From the NCBI GenBank assembly GCA_026025795.1, contig JAPEUG010000157.1, positions 1-35,469 on the forward strand: 35,469 nt of DNA, read 5' to 3'. Below are positions 8,436-35,469 of this stretch, one piece after another. The stretch comes from Thelocarpon superellum (Eukaryota). Made by a program: the position numbers and the translations under genes. Each line of letters begins with the position of its first letter. The stretch's first letter is position 1. The notes beneath the pieces are model-generated. The model was not told the DNA's origin and ran no database searches. It worked only from the letters and a program-made list of their open reading frames with translations.

Positions 8436-11318
8436 CTAGATAAAGGCCGTCGATGCCTCCCGGCTTTCCAACTGTCGATGCCCCTCATCCTCGACGCTGA
8501 TGGGCCGTTGGGGTTTGAAGTCCACCAGCCGCGGCGAGTACATGCTGGACGTGTCGTTGGACACGCGCGACCCGACCAGCGGTAGGCCCAAGGGCGCATT
8601 CGCCCGAAACATGGTCACCGGAACGGCAAAGGCGAGCCCAGCTTCTTCGCCGCCCCCGGCCTCCGGGCTGTGGCGTGGTGTGTCGGCCGAGGGGGTGCCG
8701 TTGCGCTCCTCGTCGCCCGCAGGCTGCTGATACCACCGTCGATTGCCATCGGCGTCGCGAGCTTCCATGAACCGGCCGCCCTGGTGGAAGGACATGGACG
8801 GGCGCGATCCCGTCGTCGACCCCAGTCGGCCCGTCACACGGCTGACCTCACGGCACAGGCGCGTCAGATCCTCGCTGAGACGCGATCCAACGCTTTGCGA
8901 CATGAGCCCGCTGCTGCCATGTCGTCGCTCCCTTATCGACGACGCTTGACTGTCGAGCCCCGCGTCGGATGTGAGCTGGCGGAAGAAGTGTTCTACTGAC
9001 ACTGTCCTCGTGCTAGCCTCGCCCGACGTGATCCCGAGCGCGTTGGGTGAAGGTGACCCTTGCGGATGAGCGCGTCGCCCTGATGCCCGTTGCGATCCAC
9101 CGAACAAGGGAGACGGCCCTTGTCGGTCACCATATCGCTCGCGTCGGCTAGCAGAGATGCGCGACGGGTCGAGCGTCGGCTCTGGGCTCGTGACGATGCG
9201 GATGGTGGACGCTCGCGGTAAGGGAAAATGGTCGAGTAACTCTGTTGACGGCGAGCGTGAGCTCTCGTCACTGCTCTGGATCGTCGTCCAGGTTTGTCGT
9301 TCCGACGTGATGCCCGAGAGACGTGAGTACCCTGACCCGATCTGACTCAGACGGCGTCGCTCGTCCACTCGGCCATCCGCCACGCTCCTCGGACGATCCC
9401 GCGCCCGCCCTATGCTGGCGCTGGAGAAACGGCGGAGGAGCGGCGTCGGGCGCGTCTTCGAGAGCTTTCGAGCGGGAGACTTGTCCGGGATCGGTGGGGG
9501 CGACGGGGCCGGGGGGGTGCGGAGCGAGAAGTTGATGGGCGGCCGTGAGGCGTTGAAGCCCTCGAGCGGCGATCGGCCGAATATTTCGGGATCCGACGTG
9601 GCCACGCCGATCTGCAAGTTCGGGTTTGAGTTGACATCAAGTGAGATGTGGTGCGTCGGTAGGGGGCTCGCTGGCGCCGACCACATCACGCTCCAGGTGC
9701 GCAGCTGCGGCAAGGTGGGCGGCGATTCTTTCTCTTGTCCGTCCGACGCCACCATCGACGCCGTGTCCGAGTCGGGCGGAAAGGGCTCATAAGCTGGCGT
9801 CGGTCGAGAGATCTCGCCGAGCCCGGATCGGTACCCTTGTCTCTCACGTCTCCGCCGACATTGGCGCAGACCACAGAGCGCGAGCACAGCGCACAGTATC
9901 ACGATGGGCACCACCGATGCCACCACCACCACCGTGCTCTTGGCGAGACCCGTAGCAGCTGCCGCGCTCGTACTCGTGGCCATGCTGCTCGGCACGACGG
10001 ACGAAGGCGGCGCCGTCCGCGGCGTGGGCGAGGACATGGACGAGGTAGTATCATTCCGAGGCGCCAGGCTGGCCATCACCTGGATCAGGAATGTCTCCGA
10101 TCCGGTCAGGTTGGCAGACGGCGCGCTGGTCCGGACGGTGACCGTGATGTTGCCCGGGACCACGCTTTCCGGGACGTCGCCGCTCCATTGGAGCGCGCTT
10201 GAGTCAAATTGAATCCACGGGACAAAGGGCTCAGTAGAAGAGGTGACGTTGGCGTCCGACTTGCCGAGCAATGACGCGTCTAGTTCGTATTGGAATGGAT
10301 GGCCGACGATGGCATAAGTATTGGGAATAGGCCCGAGAAAGAGGCTCGTATGAACGCGGACACTGATCAGAGCTTGTGCCACATCCCCGTGGGAATCCGT
10401 CGCAGTGACGGTGAAATTCTGCGTGGATGCGTTCTGCGGCGCGGTGCCTGTCACATCGCCGGTTGAGGCATCGAAACTCATCCATCCAGGCACCTGCGCG
10501 TCAAGGCCCTGCAAGTCCGCCCTTGCCACCGCGTGACCATCGAGGCGGAGCTCGCTCGTGAGATTGGTGATGTTCAGTGTCCCACCCGCGTTCACGTCCA
10601 CCGCCTGAGTCGTTTGTTGGAACGCAAATTCATGCTCGTCCACGATCAATTGGAAAGACGCCGTGGAACCCGCAAAGCCCACCACATCCGAGGCCGTCAG
10701 GAGAATGGCCGCTGTCTCTGCTGGAGTCGGAGGTGAAGGCGCGGGGGGCGTTGTCCCAGAGAACTGGAGATTGCTCCCCACAAAGACGATCCAGGATGGC
10801 AAGGGCGTATTGTCCGCAGACACGGCATAGTACGAGAGATTGCCGCCCGGGTTCGTGAATGTGTCCGAGGCAAAAGTGAAATTGAAAGGCGACGACGGGT
10901 ACAGCAAGAGACTACTCGGAGACGCCTGCGGCCCCAAGGAAGCGAGTTGCTTCTCCAGCGGCTTCTGCAGCGCCGGGCCCGGGGCACTCGAGACGAGAAA
11001 GGTGACCTGCATATCCGTTGTGCCGCTGTCATCCTGAGCGCTCAAGGTGACGTTGCTCGGTCCGACGTCCTGCAAGCTGGGCGTCCCGGAAAAGGTTCGG
11101 CTCGGTCCGTCGAGTTGTAGCCATGGAGGGGCGTTGCTGAGGTTGTACTGGAGGGCGCCCAAGGTCGTGGTAAAGGTTGACGCGGAGAAGGTGAAATGGT
11201 AAGGGTTCGCGACGCGGCCTACAGGCGGCACCTGAGCATTGACCGGCAGGGCCGCCTGTGGATTACCCATGACCTGCGTCGTCGACGCAAGAAGTTGAAG
11301 AAAGATGACGGCGTTCAT
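8436..11318 (-). CDS. AXL2: Axl2-like polarity landmark, type I membrane protein with cadherin-like (CADG/He_PIG) repeats, 960 aa, single exon
   Basis: Signal peptide; PVNAQVPPVGRVANPYHFTFSASTF; repeated PxWL...FSGTP units; Ser/Thr stalk; TM segment VVVVASVVPIVILCAVLALC followed by RRRR; long S/P/R-rich cytoplasmic tail. Confidence 0.88.
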   Translation of the reverse strand: MNAVIFLQLLASTTQVMGNPQAALPVNAQVPPVGRVANPYHFTFSASTFTTTLGALQYNLSNAPPWLQLDGPSRTFSGTPSLQDVGPSNVTLSAQDDSGTTDMQVTFLVSSAPGPALQKPLEKQLASLGPQASPSSLLLYPSSPFNFTFASDTFTNPGGNLSYYAVSADNTPLPSWIVFVGSNLQFSGTTPPAPSPPTPAETAAILLTASDVVGFAGSTASFQLIVDEHEFAFQQTTQAVDVNAGGTLNITNLTSELRLDGHAVARADLQGLDAQVPGWMSFDASTGDVTGTAPQNASTQNFTVTATDSHGDVAQALISVRVHTSLFLGPIPNTYAIVGHPFQYELDASLLGKSDANVTSSTEPFVPWIQFDSSALQWSGDVPESVVPGNITVTVRTSAPSANLTGSETFLIQVMASLAPRNDTTSSMSSPTPRTAPPSSVVPSSMATSTSAAAATGLAKSTVVVVASVVPIVILCAVLALCGLRQCRRRRERQGYRSGLGEISRPTPAYEPFPPDSDTASMVASDGQEKESPPTLPQLRTWSVMWSAPASPLPTHHISLDVNSNPNLQIGVATSDPEIFGRSPLEGFNASRPPINFSLRTPPAPSPPPIPDKSPARKLSKTRPTPLLRRFSSASIGRARDRPRSVADGRVDERRRLSQIGSGYSRLSGITSERQTWTTIQSSDESSRSPSTELLDHFPLPRASTIRIVTSPEPTLDPSRISASRRERYGDRQGPSPLFGGSQRASGRRAHPQGSPSPNALGITSGEASTRTVSVEHFFRQLTSDAGLDSQASSIRERRHGSSGLMSQSVGSRLSEDLTRLCREVSRVTGRLGSTTGSRPSMSFHQGGRFMEARDADGNRRWYQQPAGDEERNGTPSADTPRHSPEAGGGEEAGLAFAVPVTMFRANAPLGLPLVGSRVSNDTSSMYSPRLVDFKPQRPISVEDEGHRQLESREASTAFI

Positions 11319-11887
11319 GCTGCATCAGGCTGGCCAACCTGTCCAACATGAGCCTCTCGCCACTGCGTCAATGCCTCTTCGTCAGGATCTGTCTTACCGC
11401 ACGCCAATATGGCGAAGCCACCCTGCTCGCCGAGCGAATGGTACAAGAAACCGCCACGCATGGAGGGAGCTCACTCTCAAAAGGTATCGATGGGGTTGTA
11501 GAAAAATCCGACGAAGCGAAGATTTGGGACGACTGCGGGAGGGCATGGGTGTGAAGCTGGACTATCAGGGGCCGCGGGCGCTGACGAGTGCATTTTCATC
11601 GCGCGGGAATGAAGGGCGACGCGTTACGCTGCACCCTTGCGCGAGGCCCCCATTCCTAAATAAGGGCTCCTCAGATGAGATCGAACGGCGAGGGGATGTA
11701 CAGGAGGCTGATGAGCGTGCCAATCAATACTCAGCCCTCGAGCAAGACGGGAAAGACGGGCGAGACATGCAAGGGGCCCACACGACAATAACAACCGCGG
11801 CCGGAGCCGGGGCCGGGGCCGGGAGGCGAATGTGCATTGCCACGAGCTGGCACATAGCATAATTTAGAAGACTCCGGCTCGCAGGGC

Positions 11888-13629: not shown

Positions 13630-15891
13630 TCAAAGTTTGAATCCGCCACTGCGCGCTGTACTTGGCGCGCTCTTCAGCTGCTGCCCCTCCACGTCTCGGA
13701 GCTCGCCCCTTTGGCCAATGACGTGAACATTGCCCTTCTTCAATGCTCCTACCACCTCGGCCTTCTCTCTCTTTGTCCCCGTGCCCGCCTTCGATGACGT
13801 CTCGGCCTTGCGCCCGGCCAAGCTCTTCTTCAGGCGCTCTTTTGCCCGTCTCCGCCGGCGAAGCTTCTCTTCGCGACTCATCTCCGTCTTGGTCACGGCC
13901 GCGCCGCTCTTCAGGACCACCTCGCCCTTACTCGCGGGCCCCTCGCCCGGCGTGTAGATCTCCTGTGGCGCGAGCATCGAGTGGGCGCCCAAGTCGGCCC
14001 CGCCACTCACGGCCGCCGTCGGTCGTGCGTCTTCCAAGGCAACGGTAGGGACGTCGGCGACCACGTTGAGGCTGGGTTTGGGTGGCTTCGGCTTGTACCG
14101 CCAGCTGCTAAGGGCATCCAGCTTGGCGCTGACGTCGGCCCACAACCGCTCGACTTCGGCGTGCTCCTTGGCTAGCTTCACGTCGCGCTTGTCTTGATGC
14201 CCCGTAGGATCGACTTTCTTCATGTGTTCTTCCTCATAGATGTCCGCCAGCGACTGCTGTGCTTTAGTGTCGTCGAGCTCGACGCGTCCACGGCGGGTCT
14301 GGACAGGATGGGCGAGGTCGTCGGGACGTCGTCGGATGATCTCATCGAACTCGTGTGTGAGGATGCGCTGCTTAATCATTTCCTCGATATCCTCGCTGAC
14401 GGCGGCGGTGATGACGGGGACCGGCTTGCCCGTGCGTTCAAAGTCCAGATCTTCTTCGAGCAAGGAGTTCACAGGCCGGTCCACGGCGCGAGCCTCGCCC
14501 GATAAGGTCCACTCTCGTTTCGCCACGTTTGCCGCCTCAAGCGCGCGGATTTCTTCGGCCAGTTTAGCTTGTCGGCGTTCATGCGTGGAACGACGACTTC
14601 GGGGATCTGCAATTGCCGTAGCGGCGTTTTCGCCGTCCGTCACGTCCTCGTCTGCGGAGAGCTCGTCCTCAAAGAGATCGCGTCGAACGGCGTCGATAGT
14701 GCGTTGCACGGCTCCCTCGTCCTCTGGCGGTGACAGGTCTTCAGGTGGGGCTCTGGGATGCACACCGTCCCATTTGGTCCGCGTGTCGTTCCTGCTGGCC
14801 TTCCGAGGTGGTGGCGCGAAGAAGTCTTTGTACAGAACGTCGTTGGTATTTTCCACCGCATCCGCCATGGACGTAGAATCGCCCAACTCGTCCGATTGTG
14901 CGGCACCATCGTCGCTCTCGCCCTCTGGTGCATGTAGATCGACGTTACCGAATGTAGGTCCATCATCGTCGTCCTCGCTCTGCCCATGACCGACGTCCCC
15001 CTTGCCCTCATTATTTGTCGTTCCATTTGCGTTGGAATTCAGGTCACGCGGGTCGACAGTCCAGTCAATCTCCTCCTCGTCGGCAGGCTCGGCAGCAGAG
15101 TCTCCAAGCGCGTCCTGCCGTTCCAGAAAAGTGGAGACCTTGTTGAAGGCGTCGATGGAGAAGAAGCCGTCATTTAGGCCATTCGGATCCTCGACAAAGA
15201 CTTCTTCAGGCTCCTCCTCCCCTTGGAAGTCCTCTCCGCTGTCATCAAGGTGACTCAGCTCGTCCTGAGAGATGTCATCTTCGTCCTCGATCGCCTCGTC
15301 CTCGAGGTCGAGGTCGAGATCGGACTGCGCTGCGCTGTCGTCCTCGAGACTTGATTCACCATCCGATCTCCCAACCTCAAAACCATCTTCATCAATTCGC
15401 ATCAGCGATGATCCGGTCCCTTTATCGGTCGAGCGTGCATCACGTAGCTGTGTGGCTTCCTCGTCCGATAATCCCGCCAGACCGCGCTCCACCTCATCCG
15501 CTGCCGCATCCAAGACCTTGCGTGCCTGCTGCCAGACCTGATCAATTCCGAACCCGTTGAGGTAGATGCGGTTGAGCTTCAACGGCAGAATTGCCGCGCT
15601 CGTGTCGGGGATGGCCCTCTTCCGCTTCCGACCGAGGTTTTGGCGGCGATTGAGCTGGCCCTCAATCACAGAGGAGGCAAGTGGATCGAGGTATGCTTTG
15701 GCGAGACCCAGGGCATTGGTGTGTAGCGTACATGGCGGCTGTAAAAAGGTATGGGGGGCTGACGACAGGGCCGAGACGATCGTCGAGGTGGCGGTGGCGG
15801 ATGACTGTAGGTCCGTCGTGGGTGGTTGTGGTGGATCGGCGGACAGGGTGTGCGACGTCGCCGACGCCGAGCTGAGAGAATCGGCCACCAT
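13630..15891 (-). CDS. MPP10: U3 snoRNP/SSU processome protein Mpp10, 753 aa, single exon
   Basis: LNDGFFSIDAFNK, WTLSGEARAVDRPVNSLLEEDLDFER, IKQRI...FDE, LDALSSWRYKPKP, LAPQEIY, acidic N-terminal half, C-terminal FKL. Confidence 0.95.
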   Translation of the reverse strand: MVADSLSSASATSHTLSADPPQPPTTDLQSSATATSTIVSALSSAPHTFLQPPCTLHTNALGLAKAYLDPLASSVIEGQLNRRQNLGRKRKRAIPDTSAAILPLKLNRIYLNGFGIDQVWQQARKVLDAAADEVERGLAGLSDEEATQLRDARSTDKGTGSSLMRIDEDGFEVGRSDGESSLEDDSAAQSDLDLDLEDEAIEDEDDISQDELSHLDDSGEDFQGEEEPEEVFVEDPNGLNDGFFSIDAFNKVSTFLERQDALGDSAAEPADEEEIDWTVDPRDLNSNANGTTNNEGKGDVGHGQSEDDDDGPTFGNVDLHAPEGESDDGAAQSDELGDSTSMADAVENTNDVLYKDFFAPPPRKASRNDTRTKWDGVHPRAPPEDLSPPEDEGAVQRTIDAVRRDLFEDELSADEDVTDGENAATAIADPRSRRSTHERRQAKLAEEIRALEAANVAKREWTLSGEARAVDRPVNSLLEEDLDFERTGKPVPVITAAVSEDIEEMIKQRILTHEFDEIIRRRPDDLAHPVQTRRGRVELDDTKAQQSLADIYEEEHMKKVDPTGHQDKRDVKLAKEHAEVERLWADVSAKLDALSSWRYKPKPPKPSLNVVADVPTVALEDARPTAAVSGGADLGAHSMLAPQEIYTPGEGPASKGEVVLKSGAAVTKTEMSREEKLRRRRRAKERLKKSLAGRKAETSSKAGTGTKREKAEVVGALKKGNVHVIGQRGELRDVEGQQLKSAPSTARSGGFKL

Positions 15892-16039
15892 GTTGACCCC
15901 AGTTCACGAAGTCGGTACATCGATCTGAAATGGTTAATTCCAAGCCATGCTTGTCGGTCCCACGGCGTCTCTCAGTTTTGGAGCGGTGGGGGACCAGGCG
16001 ATAGAATGTCGGAGACAATAGAGACACATGTAGGAGCGT

Positions 16040-19326: not shown

Positions 19327-19685
19327 TGGGTTGGCTGCTCCTTGGCGGGGAGCCTTGATTGGACAAGGCGGCTTTCCTGGCGCATTCGAAGTGTACAAAG
19401 ATGCTTGAGCATGTGTTCCTGTTCCACCGTCAACCATCCCGTTCGTACAACGAACCAAGTGTCTCGGGGGCCTCCTCGCATATCCGTCGTAGCAGTTGAG
19501 AGGCAGATGCCAGACCTCAGCCATTACCACATTGTCCGGTGGACGACAGAAGCTGTAGACGCACATATGCAATCGTCAAGATACCCCACGGCCCCACCAA
19601 GCCCTCTCTTAAGAGTATACCCTTCACGATCGCGCGATGCAGATCGGATTCGGAAGTACCTGTATATAGTCCCTGTCCTCTCCTT

Positions 19686-21944
19686 ATGCCCTCGGCCACT
19701 CCCACCACCTCGACTGGCTTGACCATCACCAACCCTTTGGTCCTGTACCGCGCCCTCGTCGCCACCAAGCGCATCGACGCAGACCCCGCGCAGCATCGCC
19801 TCGCACTCCACCTCCAGAAGCTCTATCACCGGCTGAAGGACTACGAGCCCACCGTGGAATACAGCGCGCGACTGAAGGATCTCCGTCGTCTAATAGGGGA
19901 AGCGGAGGGCGGCGCTGCTACGGCGGGAGCCTCCTCCGCGCGTCGACGACGAGATGACGTGCCAAAGGGGGGAATCTTCTCCTCTTTACTCGCGCAGAAG
20001 GACAAGCGCGACATCCTCGCTCTGACGAGGGTCGTGACCAGCCATGAAGAAGCAATGCGGCTCACCTCGCCCCAAGGCCTCCTGCTCCATGGCGAGGTGG
20101 GCACGGGGAAGAGCATGCTGGTGGACCTACTCGCGGACTGTCTGCCCAACCGGAAGAAGCGCCGGTGGCATTTCAACACCTTCATGCTGGACACCTTCCG
20201 GCGGCTGGAGCAGTTGCGGAGAGAACAGCAGAGCGCCGAACGCGCCACGAGCAGGGGTCGCGAGGGCCTCGAGGCGGAATACTCGCTGCTGCGACTCGCG
20301 CGGGACTTGATTTCGACCTCGCCGATCCTGTTCCTGGATGAGTTCCAGCTCCCGGACCGCGCAGCCTCGAAGATCCTGCTTAATCTCCTGACTTCCTTTT
20401 TCCACCTCGGCGGCGTCCTCATCGCCACGAGCAATCGTATGCCCGAGGAGCTGGCGAAGGCGAGCGGGATGGAATTCGCCCCGCCCGCGTCTCCCTCCTC
20501 TTCCGCCATGGGGCTGCTGTCCGGCGGGAGGTGGGAAAGAGCCTCGTCGTGGGGCACGTCAGTGGCGGCGCCAGCTTCTCGAGGACGGAGCGAGGGGCTG
20601 TTCGGCGGCCGCGGCGAGTTTGTGCACTTCGTCGAGCTGCTCAAGGCCCGGTGCGAGGTGTGGGACATGGAGGGCGGTCGCGATTGGCGCCGCAGAGAAG
20701 CCGAGGATGATGTTCGCCTGCCCGATCTCGAGGGACTGCAGTCCCTTGAACATGATGATCTGCTCGTCGACCAGGCCCTGGTGGGAGAGGGTGGCATGCA
20801 GGCATCCAACTACAACAGCATCACGTCGGACAGCGGTACAGGGAAAGCCATCCTTCCTAAACATTACATTGTGCAGCTTCCACCCGGAACGGATGATACA
20901 GGTCCAGACAGCCAGGACTGGAGCACAGCGCTCTCCGGCGCCCTGCACGCCGAGTCGGCCGGCCCAGCGTCACAGCAGATTCGGTGGCAATGCAGCAGCA
21001 TGCACGTGTACGGACGATCCATCACGGTGCCGCGGGCCCATCAGGGCATCAGCAGCTGGACCTTCGCCGAGCTATGCGGGAGCAATCTCGGGCCGGCAGA
21101 CTACATAACGCTGGCGGCGACCTTTGACACACTGGTCCTGACGGACGTGCCCGTGCTCACGCTCGTGCAGAAGAACGAGGCCCGTCGGCTCATCACCCTC
21201 CTTGACGCCCTATACGAAGCCCGGTGTAAGCTTCTCGTTACCGCCGCCGCGGGCCCGGATGCCCTCTTCTTCCCTGAGACGGCCACAACTGCATCGGCAG
21301 TGGAGGAGATAGGGCAGGCTTCGACGGCCAGAGGGGCAAAAGACAGCGATGCTGTTTACGCCGAAACCTTTGCCGAGATGCACCAAGACGCGACGGCGCC
21401 CTTCCGACCCAACATCGCAACGTACGAGGACTCATCCGCGCCCTCCAATGGCCGGCGCCGGTCGGTCTTGGCCGACGAAGACTCCGACTTCGGGCCCATC
21501 GCGCCTGGCGCAGGCAACGAGATCGGTCGGCGCGACGACGATATCGACTTCTCTCGTGCTGGTACCTTCACGGGCGAAGACGAACGCTTTGCCTACAAGC
21601 GCGCGAGCAGTCGTTTGTGGGAGATGTGCAGTGCGAGATGGTGGGCTCGTACTGAGCCGGGATGGTGGCGGCCGCTGCCGGCGGATGTGCGGAGATGGGA
21701 GACCACGGCCAGTGAGATTGGGGAGGATAGGTCAGACGCGGATGGTACCATGCTGAAGAGCCACGACGAACTCTTTCGCCACGGTGCGAGCCCGTTCCGC
21801 GTCAGCGAAGAGGCCCCGCCCAAATTTGCGGCGGTGCATGCGTGGGGGATGATGCAGTGGGGCAAGAAGGCCGGGCGGTGGGGAAAGGGCGCGGAGGCTT
21901 TTGCCGCACAGGCCGACCACGAGAAGTCGAAGGATCGATCGTGA
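19686..21944 (+). CDS. AFG1: AFG1/ZapE-family ATPase, about 752 aa from MPSATP, single exon
   Basis: Walker A GEVGTGKS, RRWHFNTFM, Walker B ILFLDEFQ, ATSNRMPEEL, LGPADY, NEARRLITLLDALYE, GEDERFAYKRASSRLWEM; may be a paralogue rather than the strict AFG1 orthologue. Confidence 0.9.
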   Translation: MPSATPTTSTGLTITNPLVLYRALVATKRIDADPAQHRLALHLQKLYHRLKDYEPTVEYSARLKDLRRLIGEAEGGAATAGASSARRRRDDVPKGGIFSSLLAQKDKRDILALTRVVTSHEEAMRLTSPQGLLLHGEVGTGKSMLVDLLADCLPNRKKRRWHFNTFMLDTFRRLEQLRREQQSAERATSRGREGLEAEYSLLRLARDLISTSPILFLDEFQLPDRAASKILLNLLTSFFHLGGVLIATSNRMPEELAKASGMEFAPPASPSSSAMGLLSGGRWERASSWGTSVAAPASRGRSEGLFGGRGEFVHFVELLKARCEVWDMEGGRDWRRREAEDDVRLPDLEGLQSLEHDDLLVDQALVGEGGMQASNYNSITSDSGTGKAILPKHYIVQLPPGTDDTGPDSQDWSTALSGALHAESAGPASQQIRWQCSSMHVYGRSITVPRAHQGISSWTFAELCGSNLGPADYITLAATFDTLVLTDVPVLTLVQKNEARRLITLLDALYEARCKLLVTAAAGPDALFFPETATTASAVEEIGQASTARGAKDSDAVYAETFAEMHQDATAPFRPNIATYEDSSAPSNGRRRSVLADEDSDFGPIAPGAGNEIGRRDDDIDFSRAGTFTGEDERFAYKRASSRLWEMCSARWWARTEPGWWRPLPADVRRWETTASEIGEDRSDADGTMLKSHDELFRHGASPFRVSEEAPPKFAAVHAWGMMQWGKKAGRWGKGAEAFAAQADHEKSKDRS

Positions 21945-22101: not shown

Positions 22102-23428
22102 TCATTCGTCGGAGGCATCCTCCGTCTCATCCAGCGCCCTCATGATGGGCTCAATCTCGCGGGGATCGCTGATGCCCCAGACGCCGCCGCCTTTGACGTG
22201 ATCGCGGCCGCGCATGCCGACCTCCTTGCCCACCAGGTTGCGCCCGACCTGGCCCGGGCCGATACCGATCCAGCGTCGCACGCGCTCTTCCTGGTCCAAG
22301 TAGCGGATCGAGTCCCACCACCGCACCGTCTCGACACACTGCCGCGCCAGCAGGTCTTTGAGCTCGTCGCGTGATTTGAACGGCCGCGCAGATACGTTGG
22401 AGATGCACGGCATGCGCCCGGGGAAGGCCACCATATCGTCTGAGGCGCTATCGCCGCTGGGATTGGCTGAGAGGAGCTCTTCCATTATCGTGGCCGCGGG
22501 CTTCATCAGCGGCGAGTGGAAGGGGCTGTCGCTTTTCAAGCGGACGGCTCGTGGATCGTGTCCGCCGAATTGCCGGATGTGCGTCAACAGCGTCTTGATC
22601 CGTTCGATGTTGCCTGAGAGCACGATCTGGTTCCTGGAGTTGATGTTGGCAATCAGGACCTGCTGGATGGGAGGCACCTCCTCCGCCGAGTCCTGCTTCG
22701 ACCCGGGTGATCCATGGCCGAGGAAGTCGTGGATGGCGTCGATGAGGGAGGGTAGGTGTGAGGGCTCGCAGACCAGGGCCACCATGCCGTACTCGCCACC
22801 ACCTTGCTCACACGCAGCGCGCGAGCAGTCAGCCATGACCTCGGCCCGTCGTCGTACCATCTTCAAGGCATCCTGCTGGCGGAGGTAGCCACCGGCCACC
22901 AAGGCGGCGAACTCGCCGAGGGAGTGGCCCAGAGTGAAGTCCACTCGGTCCGGGGTGTGGAACCCAAAGTCTTGCTCGAGAACGCGTAAGATCATGATGG
23001 AGGTCGCCATGATCGCCGGTTGTGCATTCTCCGTTGCCGTGAGCTTGGAATTGGGGCCATCGGCGATGATGCGTGAGAGCGGATATTTCAGTAGCGTATC
23101 GATCTCGTTCAAGAGGGGACGAACGGTATTGGGAAAGGCTTCCAGCCATGGCGTGGCCATGCCCACTCGCTGGACCCCCTGGCCTAGCCTGATGTCAGAG
23201 ATGATGCGGCAGGCAATGGTGCATTGACAGACCGGGGAAGAACAACGCTGTCCGTGGCCGTCTTTTTGGTACCGCAGACGCCCACCGCTGGCGTGTACGA
23301 CGGACAGGCCATCTAGGGGCGTGGGCCGGGCTTGCTCCTGGCCATAGTATGCTCGCCGTCCGATTCGCCATGAAACACGCGTGGCGTGAATCTCGAATGG
23401 GCGGACTGAGACCACGGATTCGCATCAT
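22102..23428 (-). CDS. MCT1: Mitochondrial malonyl-CoA:ACP transacylase; exons 23428-23233 and 23183-22102, 425 aa
   Basis: Arg-rich presequence, ALFFPG|QGVQ, TENAQPAI, catalytic GHSLGE, ANINSRNQIVLSG, SPFHSPLM; intron 23232-23184. Confidence 0.93.
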
Positions 23429-29921: not shown

Positions 29922-29987
29922 ACCCCCGCTCCGCCCTACCAAGGCGTGCACGCCCATCATCCGGCCGCGCGCCGCCGTTCGCGCGTC

Positions 29988-32475
29988 ATGACGACGTCTG
30001 TCAGTCGCTACGCCCCCAACGGGGTCTCGCATGGGCCGGATGAGCATATGGCCGACTCCCCGCCCTCTCGCTTCACGGCGGTCAACGGCCGCCATAGTCA
30101 AGAAAGGCCGAACGGTGCAAGTTCCTCGGGCGGCCCCCCCGCGGCCGCCAACGGCGATCCCGCCCTGGACGCCCGTCCCGCCCCAGAGGAACGACCGCGG
30201 CCGATCCATCTGCCGGAGCTCTCGCCGCGACGCCGTGCCGAAGAGGGCCTCAAGCTATCGTCTCAGCGCGAGTCGTGGGGACAGGATCCTATGGCCGTGG
30301 ACGCTGAGCGCCGCGACTCACATGCGCCGCCACACCACCCCGAGTCCGCTTCCGCCTTCGCCTCCAACCACAATGTGCAGAAGCGGAAGCGGTCTGAGTC
30401 CGTTGATCGGAACACCTCGAGCACCACGTCATACCAGAGTCAGGGCGCCGTGGTAAGCCCCACCAGAGGGCCGTACCCTCGGCATGACGGCGCCATGCCC
30501 GAGTACCGTCCCCGCGGCCGGTCCAGTCCCGACAGCGTACACGGCGATACTCGCGGCCGACGTGACATGAACTACCCATCAACACGAGAAGACGGCCGAG
30601 GCGAGTCGCGCGACGTGGCGTACCATGGTCCCCGATCGCCTCCAGTGCGGATGTCGTATGAACCACACCACCCTGTCTCACCTGGAGGCGCGACACACCC
30701 CGATGTCCGGCTGGCCGAAGCGTTACGACGAGAGTCACTCAACGTCGACACGAGTCCCGATAGTCGACCGGGCGGCAGCCCGGACGAGGACGACGCGCGC
30801 AGCCACCTCCGCAGCACGGACTACGGCACGGATCGGGCCCCAAGCTCGGGCGTACAGGTGGATCATCGACGACGAAAGCGGGTTTTCAGCAATCGCACCA
30901 AGACCGGCTGCATGACGTGTCGTCGGAGAAAGAAGAAGTGCGACGAGCAGAAACCGGAATGTACGTTGAGAGGCACTTCAGGTGAGGGAACAGGCTGACG
31001 CCAGGAATCTAGGCAACAACTGCATTCGTGGAGGATTCGTGTGCGAGGGATACAGCAATCGGATCGAATGGCAAAAGTCGTCGCGCGAGAAGGCACCAGT
31101 GCCGCTGCAGGCCAAAGACGGTGAGCCCGTGGCATCGAGTCAATATACCCCGTCGTCGGCGTCGGCCCCACTGGCGCAAAAGGCCACGGCGTCGAGTCAC
31201 GCCTCGCACGGGTCACACGGGAGGGAGCTCAGCCCGCTGCACTATCGCGTCGGCCATTCATCACAAGCGGCGCCAGGCGCCATGGCGCGGCCCATCTTCG
31301 TGGATGACGACCATGACCGTGTCAATGGCGAGAGCAGTCCGGCAGGTCACGGGTCGGAGGGGCGGTCGGGCGACTGGAACAAGACCTCATGGTCCAACCC
31401 CGGCCATTCGTCCTACGCTCCCGAGCGCCTACACACGAATGAGTATTCTCGCGTGCCACCGTTGCATGAGCTATCGCGCAGCGCTGGCGCTGGCGCCGCG
31501 GCCGCCGATGCCGACACGGACCCACACAGCAGCAGCCATCGGTCGCTACTGCACCTCCCAGCTCACAACAGCACGGTGCAAACGGCGCAACAAGCGCACG
31601 CGCAAGCCCAGGCACAAGCCCGGGCGCAGCTCGCCCTGCAACAGAGCTCCTCGATGGAACCAGCGGACGTGCGACCAAGCTCCGCCAAGACGGACAAGGA
31701 GAAGATGCTGGCGGGGGAATTGTACTATCCGCACGCGCCCGAGCTGGTCTTTGAGCGCGATCGCTGCAAGGCGTCTATCTGGCGGTTCAACAACTCGATG
31801 AACCCCACCTTGGGCATCTCGCGCGAGGAGCGGCTCCGGCTCTTCCGCGACGTGGTGCAGCCGCGCGAGCCGCCCATCAATGGTGCGCCGGGCGTGCGAT
31901 CTCCCATCGGACACGTGGGCGAGAACGTGGTGGTCGAAGCGCCCTTCATCTGCGACTACGGCTACAACATCAGCATCGGCCCGGAGGTGCTCATCGACAC
32001 GAATTGCACCATCAAAGACACCTGCTCCGTTTCCATCGGCGCTCGAACCGTCATCGGGCCCAATGTCAAACTCCTCACGGCCACGATGCCCATCGATCCT
32101 CGCCGACGGAAAGGAAGCCGTGGGCCGTCGCTCGGACGGGCGATTGTCATTGAAGAAGACTGCTGGATTGGCGCCGGTGCCATCGTCCTGTACGCCCACC
32201 CCCCCTCCTCCCCCCTCTCCCAGAGTGATGAGCTAACGTGATGGGTGATGATAGGCCTGGCTTGACGGTGGGCAAATCATCGACCGTGGGAGCAGGTTCG
32301 GTCGTGACGAGGGTAAGCATGAACCTGGTCGAGTTGATTTCCCCCAACGCGCACGAGCTGACTTTTCTGTCCTGCGCAGAACGTGCCGCGATTCACGGTT
32401 GTGGCGGGTAATCCGGCGCGCGTTCATCGCGGCATCTACTCGAACGATAATCCTCAGGATGCTCAGGTGAACTGA
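29988..32475 (+). CDS. Zn(II)2Cys6 transcription factor fused to a maltose/galactoside O-acetyltransferase (Mac + hexapeptide left-handed beta-helix) domain; exons 29988-30960, 31013-32189, 32255-32312, 32380-32475, 767 aa
   Basis: RTKTGCMTCRRRKKKCDEQKPE-C-NNCIRGGFVC; KEKMLAGELY, VEAPFICDYGYNISIG, IEEDCWIGAGAIVLPGLTVG, GAGSVVTR, VVAGNPAR; three canonical introns. Confidence 0.92.
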
Positions 32476-33512: not shown

Positions 33513-34870
33513 CTAGTCCATGACGTGAGCAATTGTGGCAGAGGTATAAGACATGAACGTGTCGCCGAGCGGCAAAGAAGGCGAGCTGCCATCGACCAGG
33601 TTACCGTCGAAGCAACCAAAGTAAGCGTAGCGCTGGACGTAGTTTAGAGAATCCAACCACGGCATGACGTCCTGGAGGAAAGTATTCTGTTCGTCCGTGG
33701 AGCCCGACGCGCCAAACTCCGTGATCCACAGCGGGCGGTTGCCACCGGCCTTGTACGCCGACTCGACGTATTCCTTAAAGTAGCCGAAGTTGGTCGCCGA
33801 GTCGTACCAGTGGATGGGCACAAAGTCGATCTGGCAGTCGGTGCACAGGCCCAAGAAAGACTCGAGCCACGCGAGCCCGGCGGGCGACCCGGCGTTCGTG
33901 ACGGCTGGTGCGCCGAGCTGCGCTTGTCCCGCGAACGGCTGCATGAATTGCTTGTACCCGGCTGCGGCCTCCTCGGGGGAAATGTTGGCTTGGCCGGCGT
34001 TGTCGGGCTCGTTGAAGCTAGGGGAAATAGTCAGCACAGGGGTCTCATCGCTGTGGTTGATAAAAGGGCGACTCACGCAAGGAGATGCTTGGATCCGGCC
34101 TTGATGGCCGCGCTCGCCACGCTGCTCCACGAGGACGTCTTGTCGGAACTTGTTCCCCATAGCATCGGCACGTACTCATAGTCGTCGCTCAGACCAGACG
34201 TCGAGCTGGCCCAGTTGTACGCCCACGACACTTGCGAGCCGCTCCCTCCGAATCCGCCCGTCAGCGAAGCGTCGTTGTATGCGAGGCCACGCTTCTTGCT
34301 GCCGCTTCCTCCTCCGCTCGTGCTGGCGGCGGCAACGGCTTGGCCGCTCGAGCTTGGGCTGGCGCTGGCGCTGGCGGCCGGGCTGCTGGCGGCTACGCTT
34401 GGAGCCTCGTCGCTAGTGGATCCCTGGGTGAGAGCGGGTGCGGGGGTAGAGCTGGAGCTGGGAGCTTGTTTGCTGGGGGGTTTGGTGCTGCTCTCTCCGG
34501 CGGTCACGGCCGCAGCGCTGATGGCCGCAGCTGATTCGGAGGTTGCGGTGGGAGTGGTGGTCGTGCTCGAGCTTGGCGTGGTGGATGAACCCACGGCGGC
34601 GAAGTCGGCTCCAGTGTCGACTGCGGCGGCCGGGGCCGTGGAGCTCGGGATCGAGGACGAAGTCAAGGTCGGTGCAGCAGTAGGGGTGACGCTGCTGCTG
34701 GCCGCAATGTCCGGCCCAAGGGGGGCTTCGGAGCCATCTGGATAGACGTAGCTTACGAAGCAGTTGCTCTCATCGGTGGTGGTGTTGATCGGTAAGGCTT
34801 GGATCCCCTGGGCCAGAAGGGAGGCGACGCTCAGCGTCAAGAAAACTCTGGAAGTGATGGAGAATTGCAT
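33513..34870 (-). CDS. Secreted GH128 beta-1,3-glucanase (Asl1-like) with a Ser/Thr/Ala-rich linker; exons 34870-34077 and 34017-33513, 432 aa
   Basis: Signal peptide MQFSITSRVFLTLSVASLLAQGIQA; KRGLAY, SWAYNW, EYVPMLWG, LLA|FNEPD, DFVPIHWY, PLWITEFG, VQRYAYF. Confidence 0.92.
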
Positions 34871-35469
34871 TTTGCCTGTTCTAAGGACGGGGATGAAGGT
34901 GATGTGGGATGCTGTGAGGGACAGTATGGGGCGCGCAAAAAGGAGTGTGGATGCCACGAGCGACAGCTCGAATGACCGAACGTGAAGACGAGCACCAGCT
35001 CGAAGAAGGGCGGAAGAATCGAAGAGAGATGCGAAACAAGCAGAGTTGGTCCAGCAGCGCGTGGTGGGGTATACATATAGCTTCCATGCTCCGGCACCTT
35101 CAGCCGGTGGGGCCAGCGGAGCCAGTGAAACAGCGGCAATTTCGTTTGCTGTGCCCCAAGGCAGGGCGACGATGCCATCACTGCCACACGAGCGACGAGG
35201 AGCCTTGTTCACCACACATCAGGGCGGGGGTCGACTGGTACGCGGATGCATGGGTCGTGGTCTAGACCGGGAATAGGGAGTGAAAGCATTCTTGGGCAGT
35301 GACGGACTCAGACACGCGTCCCGCGACCAGTCGTTTAGTGACGACTTGACGGCGAAGAGATGAGCAAGGAGGGGGGACGTCAGCCACGCGGCAAGCGAAA
35401 CTGATCCCCTGAAGAGACATACGAGTGTTTCCCTGGCGTTCCATAAGACACACGAGTGCGTGCATGCCC

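Follow-up and report, generated by a model that had tools for sequence, protein, structure and literature searches.

A gene on the forward strand of contig JAPEUG010000157.1 from Thelocarpon superellum (assembly GCA_026025795.1; the whole stretch of 35,469 nucleotides is here called the window) encodes a 767-amino-acid (aa) protein in which a Zn2Cys6 DNA-binding domain (DBD) is followed by a domain related to the sugar O-acetyltransferases Maa and LacA. The gene occupies positions 29988..32475 (+ strand) in four exons. It is the orthologue of the Neurospora crassa regulator FF-7; its acetyltransferase centre has been dismantled, and the domain has probably been kept as a non-catalytic module.

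The catalytic centre of the fused domain

A phmmer search against all sequences of the Protein Data Bank (PDB) returned 11 distinct sequences at E≤0.001 (best 2ic7, E 6.8e-25), namely maltose and galactoside O-acetyltransferases. Over its full length (aa 550-755) the domain could be aligned with 2ic7 (E 6e-35), 1ocx (1e-30) and 1kqa (5e-23), and the succession that marks the enzyme family, a Mac cap and then a hexapeptide left-handed beta-helix, is present. Positions 31687-32193 translate as ...VLIDTNCTIKD...KLLTATMPIDP...EEDCWIGAGAIVL (DCWIGAGAIVL). The four codons at the sites of the enzyme-invariant centre residues are the following.

32086..32088 (ATG), + strand: Met683, at the site of the catalytic His (LacA His115), on a loop projecting from the helix
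31996..31998 (GAC), + strand: Asp653, at the site of LacA Asn85 and of the Asn in Maa 'ffaNfdc'
32128..32130 (TCG), + strand: Ser697, at the site of a Glu invariant in Maa-type enzymes
32164..32166 (TGG), + strand: Trp709, the kept counterpart of LacA Trp139, in DCWIG

Only the Trp is kept; His is replaced by Met, Asn by Asp and Glu by Ser. A first-pass annotation of the window had read the ATG at 32086-32088 within LLTATMPIDP, with VLIDTNCTIKD upstream of it and DCWIG, GAGSVVT and GNPAR intact, and translation returned each of these. It had also taken the Met to stand in for the catalytic His, and Met683 indeed lies under the His of 'tatHPiDP' in all five structures with printed alignments (2ic7, 3srt, 1ocx, 6ag8 and 3hjj). 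Asp653 (of LIDTNC) lies under the Asn of Escherichia coli Maa 'ffaNfdc' (1ocx, 6ag8). By residue count over the aligned ranges of 1kqa, Asp653, Met683 and Trp709 correspond to LacA Asn85, His115 and Trp139, in agreement with the published numbering.

The catalytic His was common to all crystallised left-handed beta-helix acyltransferases known in 2011, and the users of acetyl-coenzyme A (acetyl-CoA) within this fold also have a Trp from the neighbouring subunit facing that His (PMC3046976). In LacA, about 90% of the activity is gone in the H115A variant, whereas Asn85, which polarises the thioester and stabilises the intermediate, can be replaced by Ala at the cost of somewhat more than 20% (PMC12775004).

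Active-site residues in fused and stand-alone homologues

When 240 proteins from two homology searches were aligned with the T. superellum domain, 72 had both Asn and His at the corresponding sites. All of these are short proteins of about 180-209 aa whose identity to the query is 38-47%; the named members among them are bacterial sugar O-acetyltransferases, and Asn, His, Glu and Trp are present in 72/72. His is absent in the other 168, of which 165 are at least 50% identical to the domain of the window. Among these 165 close fusion-family sequences position 683 is never His (0/165; Leu, Tyr, Met, Val or others), and 94% of 163 close relatives have Trp at the Trp709 position. Position 653 is Gly in 90% and Asp in seven, all close relatives of the window; the earlier alignment of the Maa Asn with Asp thus stands for this protein and fails as a family trait, being confined to the Thelocarpon clade.

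A filter-free search of 1.84 billion representatives (50% identity) gave 3525 matches at E≤0.001, of which the best 150 were inspected. In this set His is absent from 138, present in 11 and aligned to a gap in one, and it occurs in two of the 38 with a recognisable Zn2Cys6 motif. The representatives show 16 residue types at position 683 and 17 at 697; position 709 is Trp in 74, Phe in 37 and Tyr in 21. Many of the tallied sequences come from gene calling on metagenomes, and where introns have been read through, as in some of them, the apparent conservation of the last 50 residues is lowered.

Stand-alone fungal homologues present the opposite picture. In a set of 120 proteins from a search with such a homologue, none of which has the Zn motif (0/120), Asn, His, Glu and Trp are all present in 118, the two exceptions having Leu at the His site and Phe at the Trp site, respectively (His 119/120, Glu697 120/120, Asn 120/120). 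T. superellum itself has a paralogue of this kind (P0460; 44% identity with the fused domain), in which SGTHPLDP corresponds to the TATMPIDP of the fusion, and an intact stand-alone paralogue was found in every genome examined. Named crown orthologues of the fusion, that is, those of the large clade described below, have His in 0/31, Glu697 in 0/31 and Asn653 in 1/31. The comparison set beforehand, loss of His in fusions against its retention in stand-alone homologues, therefore came out as 0/165 and 0/31 versus 72/72 and 119/120. N. crassa FF-7 (P0412) has Cys at the former His position. The Clarireedia orthologue P0086 (Sclerotiniaceae), which is not among the 150, reads TATLHIDP, with His at 684 in place of Pro.

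Phylogeny and timing of the loss

A maximum-likelihood tree of 42 domains (named rows), rooted on six bacterial enzymes, branches in the order bacteria, stand-alone fungal enzyme, Orbilia plus Pezizomycetes (89/90) and a crown clade of 31 rows (97/94). The crown clade holds Lecanoromycetes and allies, Geoglossomycetes, Leotiomycetes, Sordariomycetes, Dothideomycetes and Eurotiomycetes. The T. superellum domain is sister to that of T. impressellum (100/96) inside a lichen-fungus clade within it, a placement among the fusions that is congruent with the species tree. Homology and tree together show the fused domain to descend from a fungal sugar O-acetyltransferase of the Maa/LacA type.

Within Pezizomycotina, Orbiliomycetes and Pezizomycetes branch off first. 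The Orbilia brochopaga fusion keeps Asn, His and Glu, and the Pezizomycete fusions (Wilcoxina, Trichophaea) have Glu, His and Glu at the 653, 683 and 697 sites. Both groups have the DBD signature and the N-terminal FTAVN; KRKRS is present in Orbilia and in the Pezizomycete-like P0379, and the Wilcoxina model is without it. Independent fusions in Orbilia and Pezizomycetes were considered and rejected, given the common DBD signature and FTAVNG and the grouping with the other fusions (80/81; 93 in a wider tree). By the same characters the Orbilia and Pezizomycete proteins are true orthologues.

Because the earliest-branching fusions keep His and Glu and the crown clade is without both, the fusion came first, its catalytic centre still intact, and the loss later. 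One change accounts for the distribution, which places a single loss of the catalytic centre on the stem of crown Pezizomycotina, after the Zn2Cys6 fusion had formed, and one change still explained His versus non-His in the 42-row tree when the three trait columns were removed. On this reconstruction the loss is not peculiar to the T. superellum gene; it is ancestral to crown Pezizomycotina, Glu697 having been lost along with His.

Constraint on the fused domain

Among 141 crown-type representatives, variability over 103 helix positions is highest at 697 and ninth highest at 683, while Asp660 is invariant and Asn643 and Tyr640 are nearly so; the catalytic loop has thus been released from the constraint under which the fold remains. 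Many positions of the domain are at least 95% conserved in the 165 close sequences. In nine lichen-fungus species with both genes, mean identity is 78.9% for the fused domain versus 71.3% for the stand-alone enzyme, and 25 of the 36 pairs (not mutually independent) show the higher identity in the fused domain. Purifying selection on the fold-defining residues is no weaker than in the active stand-alone paralogue.

Part of this constraint is specific to the fusion family. Conserved residues absent from the enzymes are found in the Mac cap (R573, E574, W581, R582, F583, E597 and R600) and further along the domain (T661, C662, R669, N675, D707 and C708). Cys576, Cys662 and Cys708 (31765-31767, 32023-32025 and 32161-32163) are conserved in 93-99% of the close fusion family, at positions that in bacterial-type enzymes are mostly Ala or Val; Trp709 follows Cys708 immediately, and some stand-alone fungal enzymes also have DCW. 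Insertions at aa 589-592 and 607-623 are absent from the aligned bacterial-type enzymes.

Orthology to FF-7 and Bcin04g03490

The T. superellum protein and N. crassa FF-7 are 39% identical over 530 aa (E 5e-108) and collinear from the DBD to the C-terminus. This alignment, together with the same DBD signature, FTAVNG, KRKRS and Pfam architecture, identifies the gene as the orthologue of N. crassa ff-7 (NCU04001) and Botrytis cinerea Bcin04g03490. The signature, RKR.FSNRTKTGC.TCRRRKKKCDE..P.C.NC, consists of invariant or near-invariant columns in 57 orthologues and is present here. FTAVNG (30072-30089) and KRKRS (30381-30395), the latter of which looks like a nuclear localisation signal, are near-invariant from Orbilia to Aspergillus amid unalignable low-complexity sequence.

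Bcin04g03490 has the architecture found here, and its natural and engineered loss-of-function alleles leave B. cinerea without sporulation, sclerotia or pathogenicity; two of these alleles, Y633D and G722R, affect residues within the beta-helix (PMC8079791). Mapped on Clarireedia P0086 as a stand-in for Botrytis, with a zero offset that we infer from the match of both residues, Y633 is the second Tyr of CDYGYN and G722 the second Gly of GAG, both invariant fold residues that are present in the enzymes as well. Since these missense alleles abolish function, the domain appears to be functionally needed. In N. crassa, FF7 occupies 2756 sites, the motif being of the AAGCGC type, and SUB1 co-purifies with it (PMC4378982). 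The genetic data on these orthologues also include female sterility. Expression of ff-7 responds to carbon source (PMC8495738), and the orthology and the link to SUB-1 are confirmed by PMC8495738, PMC12027217 and PMC6293562. The two systems differ from ours in that genetic and chromatin immunoprecipitation data exist for them, whereas the T. superellum protein is known from sequence alone. They differ also in residues: the T. superellum lineage has Met and Asp at 683 and 653, most family members have Leu and Gly, and a close relative of Botrytis has Leu at 683.

As a major regulator, FF-7/Bcin04g03490 governs sexual development, conidiation and light responses, and also the virulence of plant pathogens; the T. 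superellum gene belongs, as an ordinary member, to this known family, which has been studied genetically. The notable point is the dead catalytic centre across crown Pezizomycotina. The working hypothesis in PMC8079791 is that Bcin04g03490 acetylates specific substrates. The words catalytic, histidine, active site, acetyl-CoA and trimer do not occur in the text of that paper, the examined passages of PMC8079791 and PMC4378982 call the domain a putative (O-)acetyltransferase and make no mention of missing catalytic residues, and no notice of the loss was found in the literature searched. If an ancestor of nearly all filamentous ascomycetes lost the centre in this way, the question would shift from what FF-7 acetylates to what its dead domain binds or assembles. 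The Orbilia and Pezizomycete orthologues, with their catalytic residues kept, and the intact stand-alone paralogues are natural controls.

Proposed role of the domain and alternatives

Clear homology to enzymes, the missing centre residues and purifying selection on the remainder make it well supported that the domain is a pseudoenzyme. The first-pass annotation had proposed that the chemistry was lost while the fold was kept, and the family-wide loss of His, Asn and Glu with constrained fold residues supports this. Canonical O-acetyl transfer would have been lost with these three residues, and the domain would be retained because the regulator needs a non-catalytic module. To our knowledge every solved relative of the domain is a trimer, and the active enzymes hold acetyl-CoA between neighbouring subunits. 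As the invariant residues are fold residues, and the new Mac-cap surface suggests protein contact, the domain would most likely serve as an oligomerising (trimeric) and partner-docking body. Such a body would present Zn2Cys6 heads, without the usual coiled coil, to AAGCGC-type sites, and would also contact partners such as the GATA factor SUB-1/LTF1. Binding of CoA or acyl-CoA may persist in this lineage, where the cleft motifs are intact.

Several observations weigh against this reading. Without the three trait columns, crown-clade support is reduced to 59/85. A His one place later, at 684, is found in nine of the 150 representatives, including Aspergillus and Phaeomoniella orthologues. Two crown-like representatives, P0276 and P0299, have His at 683 again, together with Gly at 653 and no Glu at 697; both are nested within the crown clade in a wider quick tree of 56 rows, P0299 on a long branch, and they may be reversions. 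Trp709, GAGSVVTR and GNPAR are intact here, as would be expected equally of an enzyme or a CoA binder. Some left-handed beta-helix N-acetyltransferases act without a catalytic base, and we know of no precedent for a trimeric Zn2Cys6 factor. The published FF7 motif is a single short site (PMC4378982). Missing residues are not proof of zero turnover, since LacA keeps roughly 10% of its activity in H115A and most of it in N85A.

The first-pass annotation had favoured a sensor: the dead domain would bind acetyl-CoA, CoA or a sugar, and its occupancy would alter DNA binding or partner recruitment, making the protein a one-component regulator. We consider this possible, yet on balance unlikely. Trp709 and the motifs GAGSVVTR and GNPAR, which we take to belong to the CoA cleft, are intact here and in most Lecanoromycetes and Leotiomycetes, but position 709 is Phe or Tyr in 58 of the 150 representatives, and the basic residues of both motifs are replaced in Eurotiomycetes. 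As these fungi nevertheless keep the protein, CoA binding is not a family-wide constraint. The proposal that the CoA-binding C-terminus is kept accordingly holds at the level of motifs for this protein and breaks down in Eurotiomycetes and some Dothideomycetes, where they have decayed. The pocket-side residues Asp639, Tyr640, Asn643 and Asp660 are nearly invariant; invariant residues are, however, equally invariant in enzymes and may be purely structural. The family-specific conserved residues, including Cys576, Cys662 and Cys708, suggest a new constrained surface, yet the former His/Glu loop is the most variable part of the helix, where a precise ligand pocket would be expected to be steadier. 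A sensor role would also fit the result that Pfam found none of the usual regulatory middle domain of Zn2Cys6 factors in the protein, and the variation of ff-7 expression with carbon source (PMC8495738). A trimeric or partner-docking scaffold seems at least as likely as such a sensor.

A broader scenario would join the two ideas and, as a whole, is rather doubtful. The FF-7 family would be a datable switch from enzyme to pseudoenzyme, in which the earliest fusions were DNA-tethered competent enzymes and the crown domain became an acetyl-CoA- or acyl-CoA-sensing trimer that couples carbon and acetyl-CoA status to the SUB-1/LTF1 light and development regulons. If this were true, the 'acetylation' model of FF-7/Bcin04g03490 would be wrong for most fungi, and these proteins would form a new class of trimeric, metabolite-gated Zn2Cys6 regulators.

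We judge it improbable that the domain is still an acyltransferase with another mechanism or acceptor, either by base-free N-acetylation of lysines in chromatin or partners or through another base (Asp653, Asp707 or Glu705). Residual or altered catalysis is the least likely of the functional readings, behind scaffold and sensor. Base-free N-acetyltransferases of this fold do exist, and the donor-side motifs are kept here; the same motifs, however, decay in whole classes that retain the gene. Substrate acetylation is the published hypothesis (PMC8079791), against which three enzyme-invariant centre residues vanish together and their sites then drift, as the variety at 683 and 697 illustrates. 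Glu705 stands where the enzymes have an invariant Gly, and Asp707 is found in 99% of the family, but Asp707 does not qualify as a new base because Asp or Asn at this position is common in true enzymes too. Asp653 was rejected as a substitute base for the family, given its restriction to seven of 165 sequences, all near the window, and the Gly found elsewhere. The family alignment contains no conserved substitute catalytic residue at or beside 683. Takeover by a neighbour was likewise rejected, as the only acidic or basic residue within three positions of 683 is Asp686, which is equally conserved in true enzymes.

Comparison with known systems

The closest characterised enzymes, E. coli Maa (1ocx/6ag8) and LacA/GAT (1kqa), resemble the T. 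superellum domain in the Mac cap and helix, CDYGYNI, the Trp facing the active site, GAGSVVT and GNPAR. They differ in having the catalytic His, the Asn85 equivalent and the Maa loop Glu, and in not being fused to a DBD. Stand-alone fungal Maa-like enzymes, which the trees place as sister to the fusion domains, share with them a two-residue loop insertion (R.G..GP); in contrast to the fusions they keep the catalytic residues (118/120), have no Zn cluster and evolve somewhat faster in the same species. FF-7 and Bcin04g03490 share the Pfam architecture, DBD signature and N-terminal motifs described above.

The epsilon and gamma subunits of eIF2B and the p25 and p27 subunits of dynactin are non-catalytic left-handed beta-helix scaffolds of acyltransferase ancestry. 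They offer a parallel for an acyltransferase-derived helix used as a structural or assembly module, and the Pfam family PF25084 (LbH_EIF2B) gives sub-threshold matches in the T. superellum protein and is precomputed on many relatives. Unlike the fused domain they are not DNA-binding, do not come from the Maa/LacA branch and have no close sequence kinship with it. In yeast, the galactokinase paralogue Gal3 is inactive as an enzyme and senses galactose and ATP within the circuit of the Zn2Cys6 factor Gal4; it is likewise a catalytically dead enzyme derivative serving Zn2Cys6 transcription control and is a model for the sensor reading. Gal3, however, is a separate protein of another fold that acts via Gal80, whereas the dead domain of T. 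superellum lies within the DNA-binding protein and its ligand binding is putative.

Gene structure and reliability of the sequence

The coding segments (29988..30960, 31013..32189, 32255..32312 and 32380..32475) and their GT...AG introns were read from the sequence, and the spliced product is 100% identical over 767 aa to an NCBI protein of T. superellum (P0003), whose database title is 'MAG: Maltose acetyltransferase' (MAG, metagenome-assembled genome). Position 32475, with which the interval of the first-pass annotation ended, is the last base of the stop codon.

29988..30960, + strand: exon 1, aa 1-324 and the first base of Cys325, in open reading frame (ORF) 29922..30998; contains FTAVNG (aa 29-34), KRKRS (aa 132-136) and the first half of the Zn2Cys6 cluster
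30961..31012, + strand: intron 1, GTACGT...CTAG, interrupting the codon of Cys325 within the Zn cluster
31013..32189, + strand: exon 2, in ORF 30970..32241; second half of the Zn cluster, linker, Mac cap and most of the beta-helix
32190..32254, + strand: intron 2, GTACGC...GATAG, interrupting the codon of Leu717
32255..32312, + strand: exon 3, aa 717-736, LPGLTVGKSSTVGAGSVVTR, including GAGSVVT; aligned to Maa '...gagsvvtkd'
32313..32379, + strand: intron 3, GTAAGC...TGCGCAG
32380..32475, + strand: exon 4, aa 737-767, including GNPAR; TGA stop at 32473-32475

Removal of intron 1 rejoins ...KPEC NNC IRGGFVCEGY, and removal of introns 2 and 3 likewise gives a product matching P0003. The Pfam domains of the protein are as follows.

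30903..31071, + strand (aa 306-344): Zn_clus (Zn2Cys6), PF00172, E 3.7e-10 on P0003
31150..31641, + strand (aa 371-534): Mac_assoc linker, PF16628, E 1.3e-13 and 2.2e-15
31702..31857, + strand (aa 555-606): Mac N-terminal cap, PF12464, E 7.9e-13
31939..32421, + strand (aa 634-750, with introns 2 and 3 inside): left-handed beta-helix body, Hexapep/Hexapep_2 (Hexapep E 2.6e-11 on P0003)

The linker is rich in Pro, Ser and Ala, and no heptad-like stretch was found in it (aa 371-534). The order Zn_clus, Mac_assoc, Mac and Hexapep also occurs on Aspergillus and Coccidioides orthologues, and the architecture is already catalogued, since Pfam has Mac_assoc ('Unstructured region on maltose acetyltransferase') for the linker.

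Exon 2 is a single open frame that runs from the second half of the Zn cluster through linker and Mac cap into most of the helix, so that the fusion is real independently of any intron call. Contigs of two moss-metagenome runs from another study are identical to the window over 31645-32195 at low depth (3.4-4), and none spans 32196-32435. Agreement of two independent runs, and the distance of ATG from a His codon (at least two changes), show that Met683 is not a sequencing slip. Related lichen fungi have Met here too, in ten sequences of the fusion family. Although the gene comes from a MAG and no RNA data were found for it, an artefact, whether from faulty sequencing or assembly, pseudogene decay or a chimeric gene model, has a negligible probability and is refuted by the open exon, the independent contigs, an architecture and loss common to orthologues across seven classes, and the strong conservation of the domain.

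From the identity of the contigs over 31645-32195, T. superellum or a very close relative is present in both moss-metagenome samples.

Neighbouring genes in the window

The other genes of the window that were identified are listed below.

8436-11324, - strand: open frame of 962 aa with three He_PIG (putative Ig) domains
13630-15903, - strand: Mpp10 gene, upstream neighbour
19500-21944, + strand: AFG1-like ATPase gene, upstream neighbour
22102-23424, - strand: Acyl_transf_1 (malonyl-CoA:ACP transacylase-like) gene, upstream neighbour
33513-35218, - strand: Glyco_hydro_cc gene (glycosyl hydrolase catalytic core); its two ORF pieces are presumably separated by an intron

A 1721-aa Scytalidium gene model merges Mpp10, Zn_clus and Mac, and a 985-aa Neofusicoccum 'S-malonyltransferase' shares a 90% cluster with an FF-7 orthologue. 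Such merged gene models hint that the neighbourhood may be conserved across classes. The N-terminal half of the Glyco_hydro_cc product is rich in Ser, Thr and Ala.

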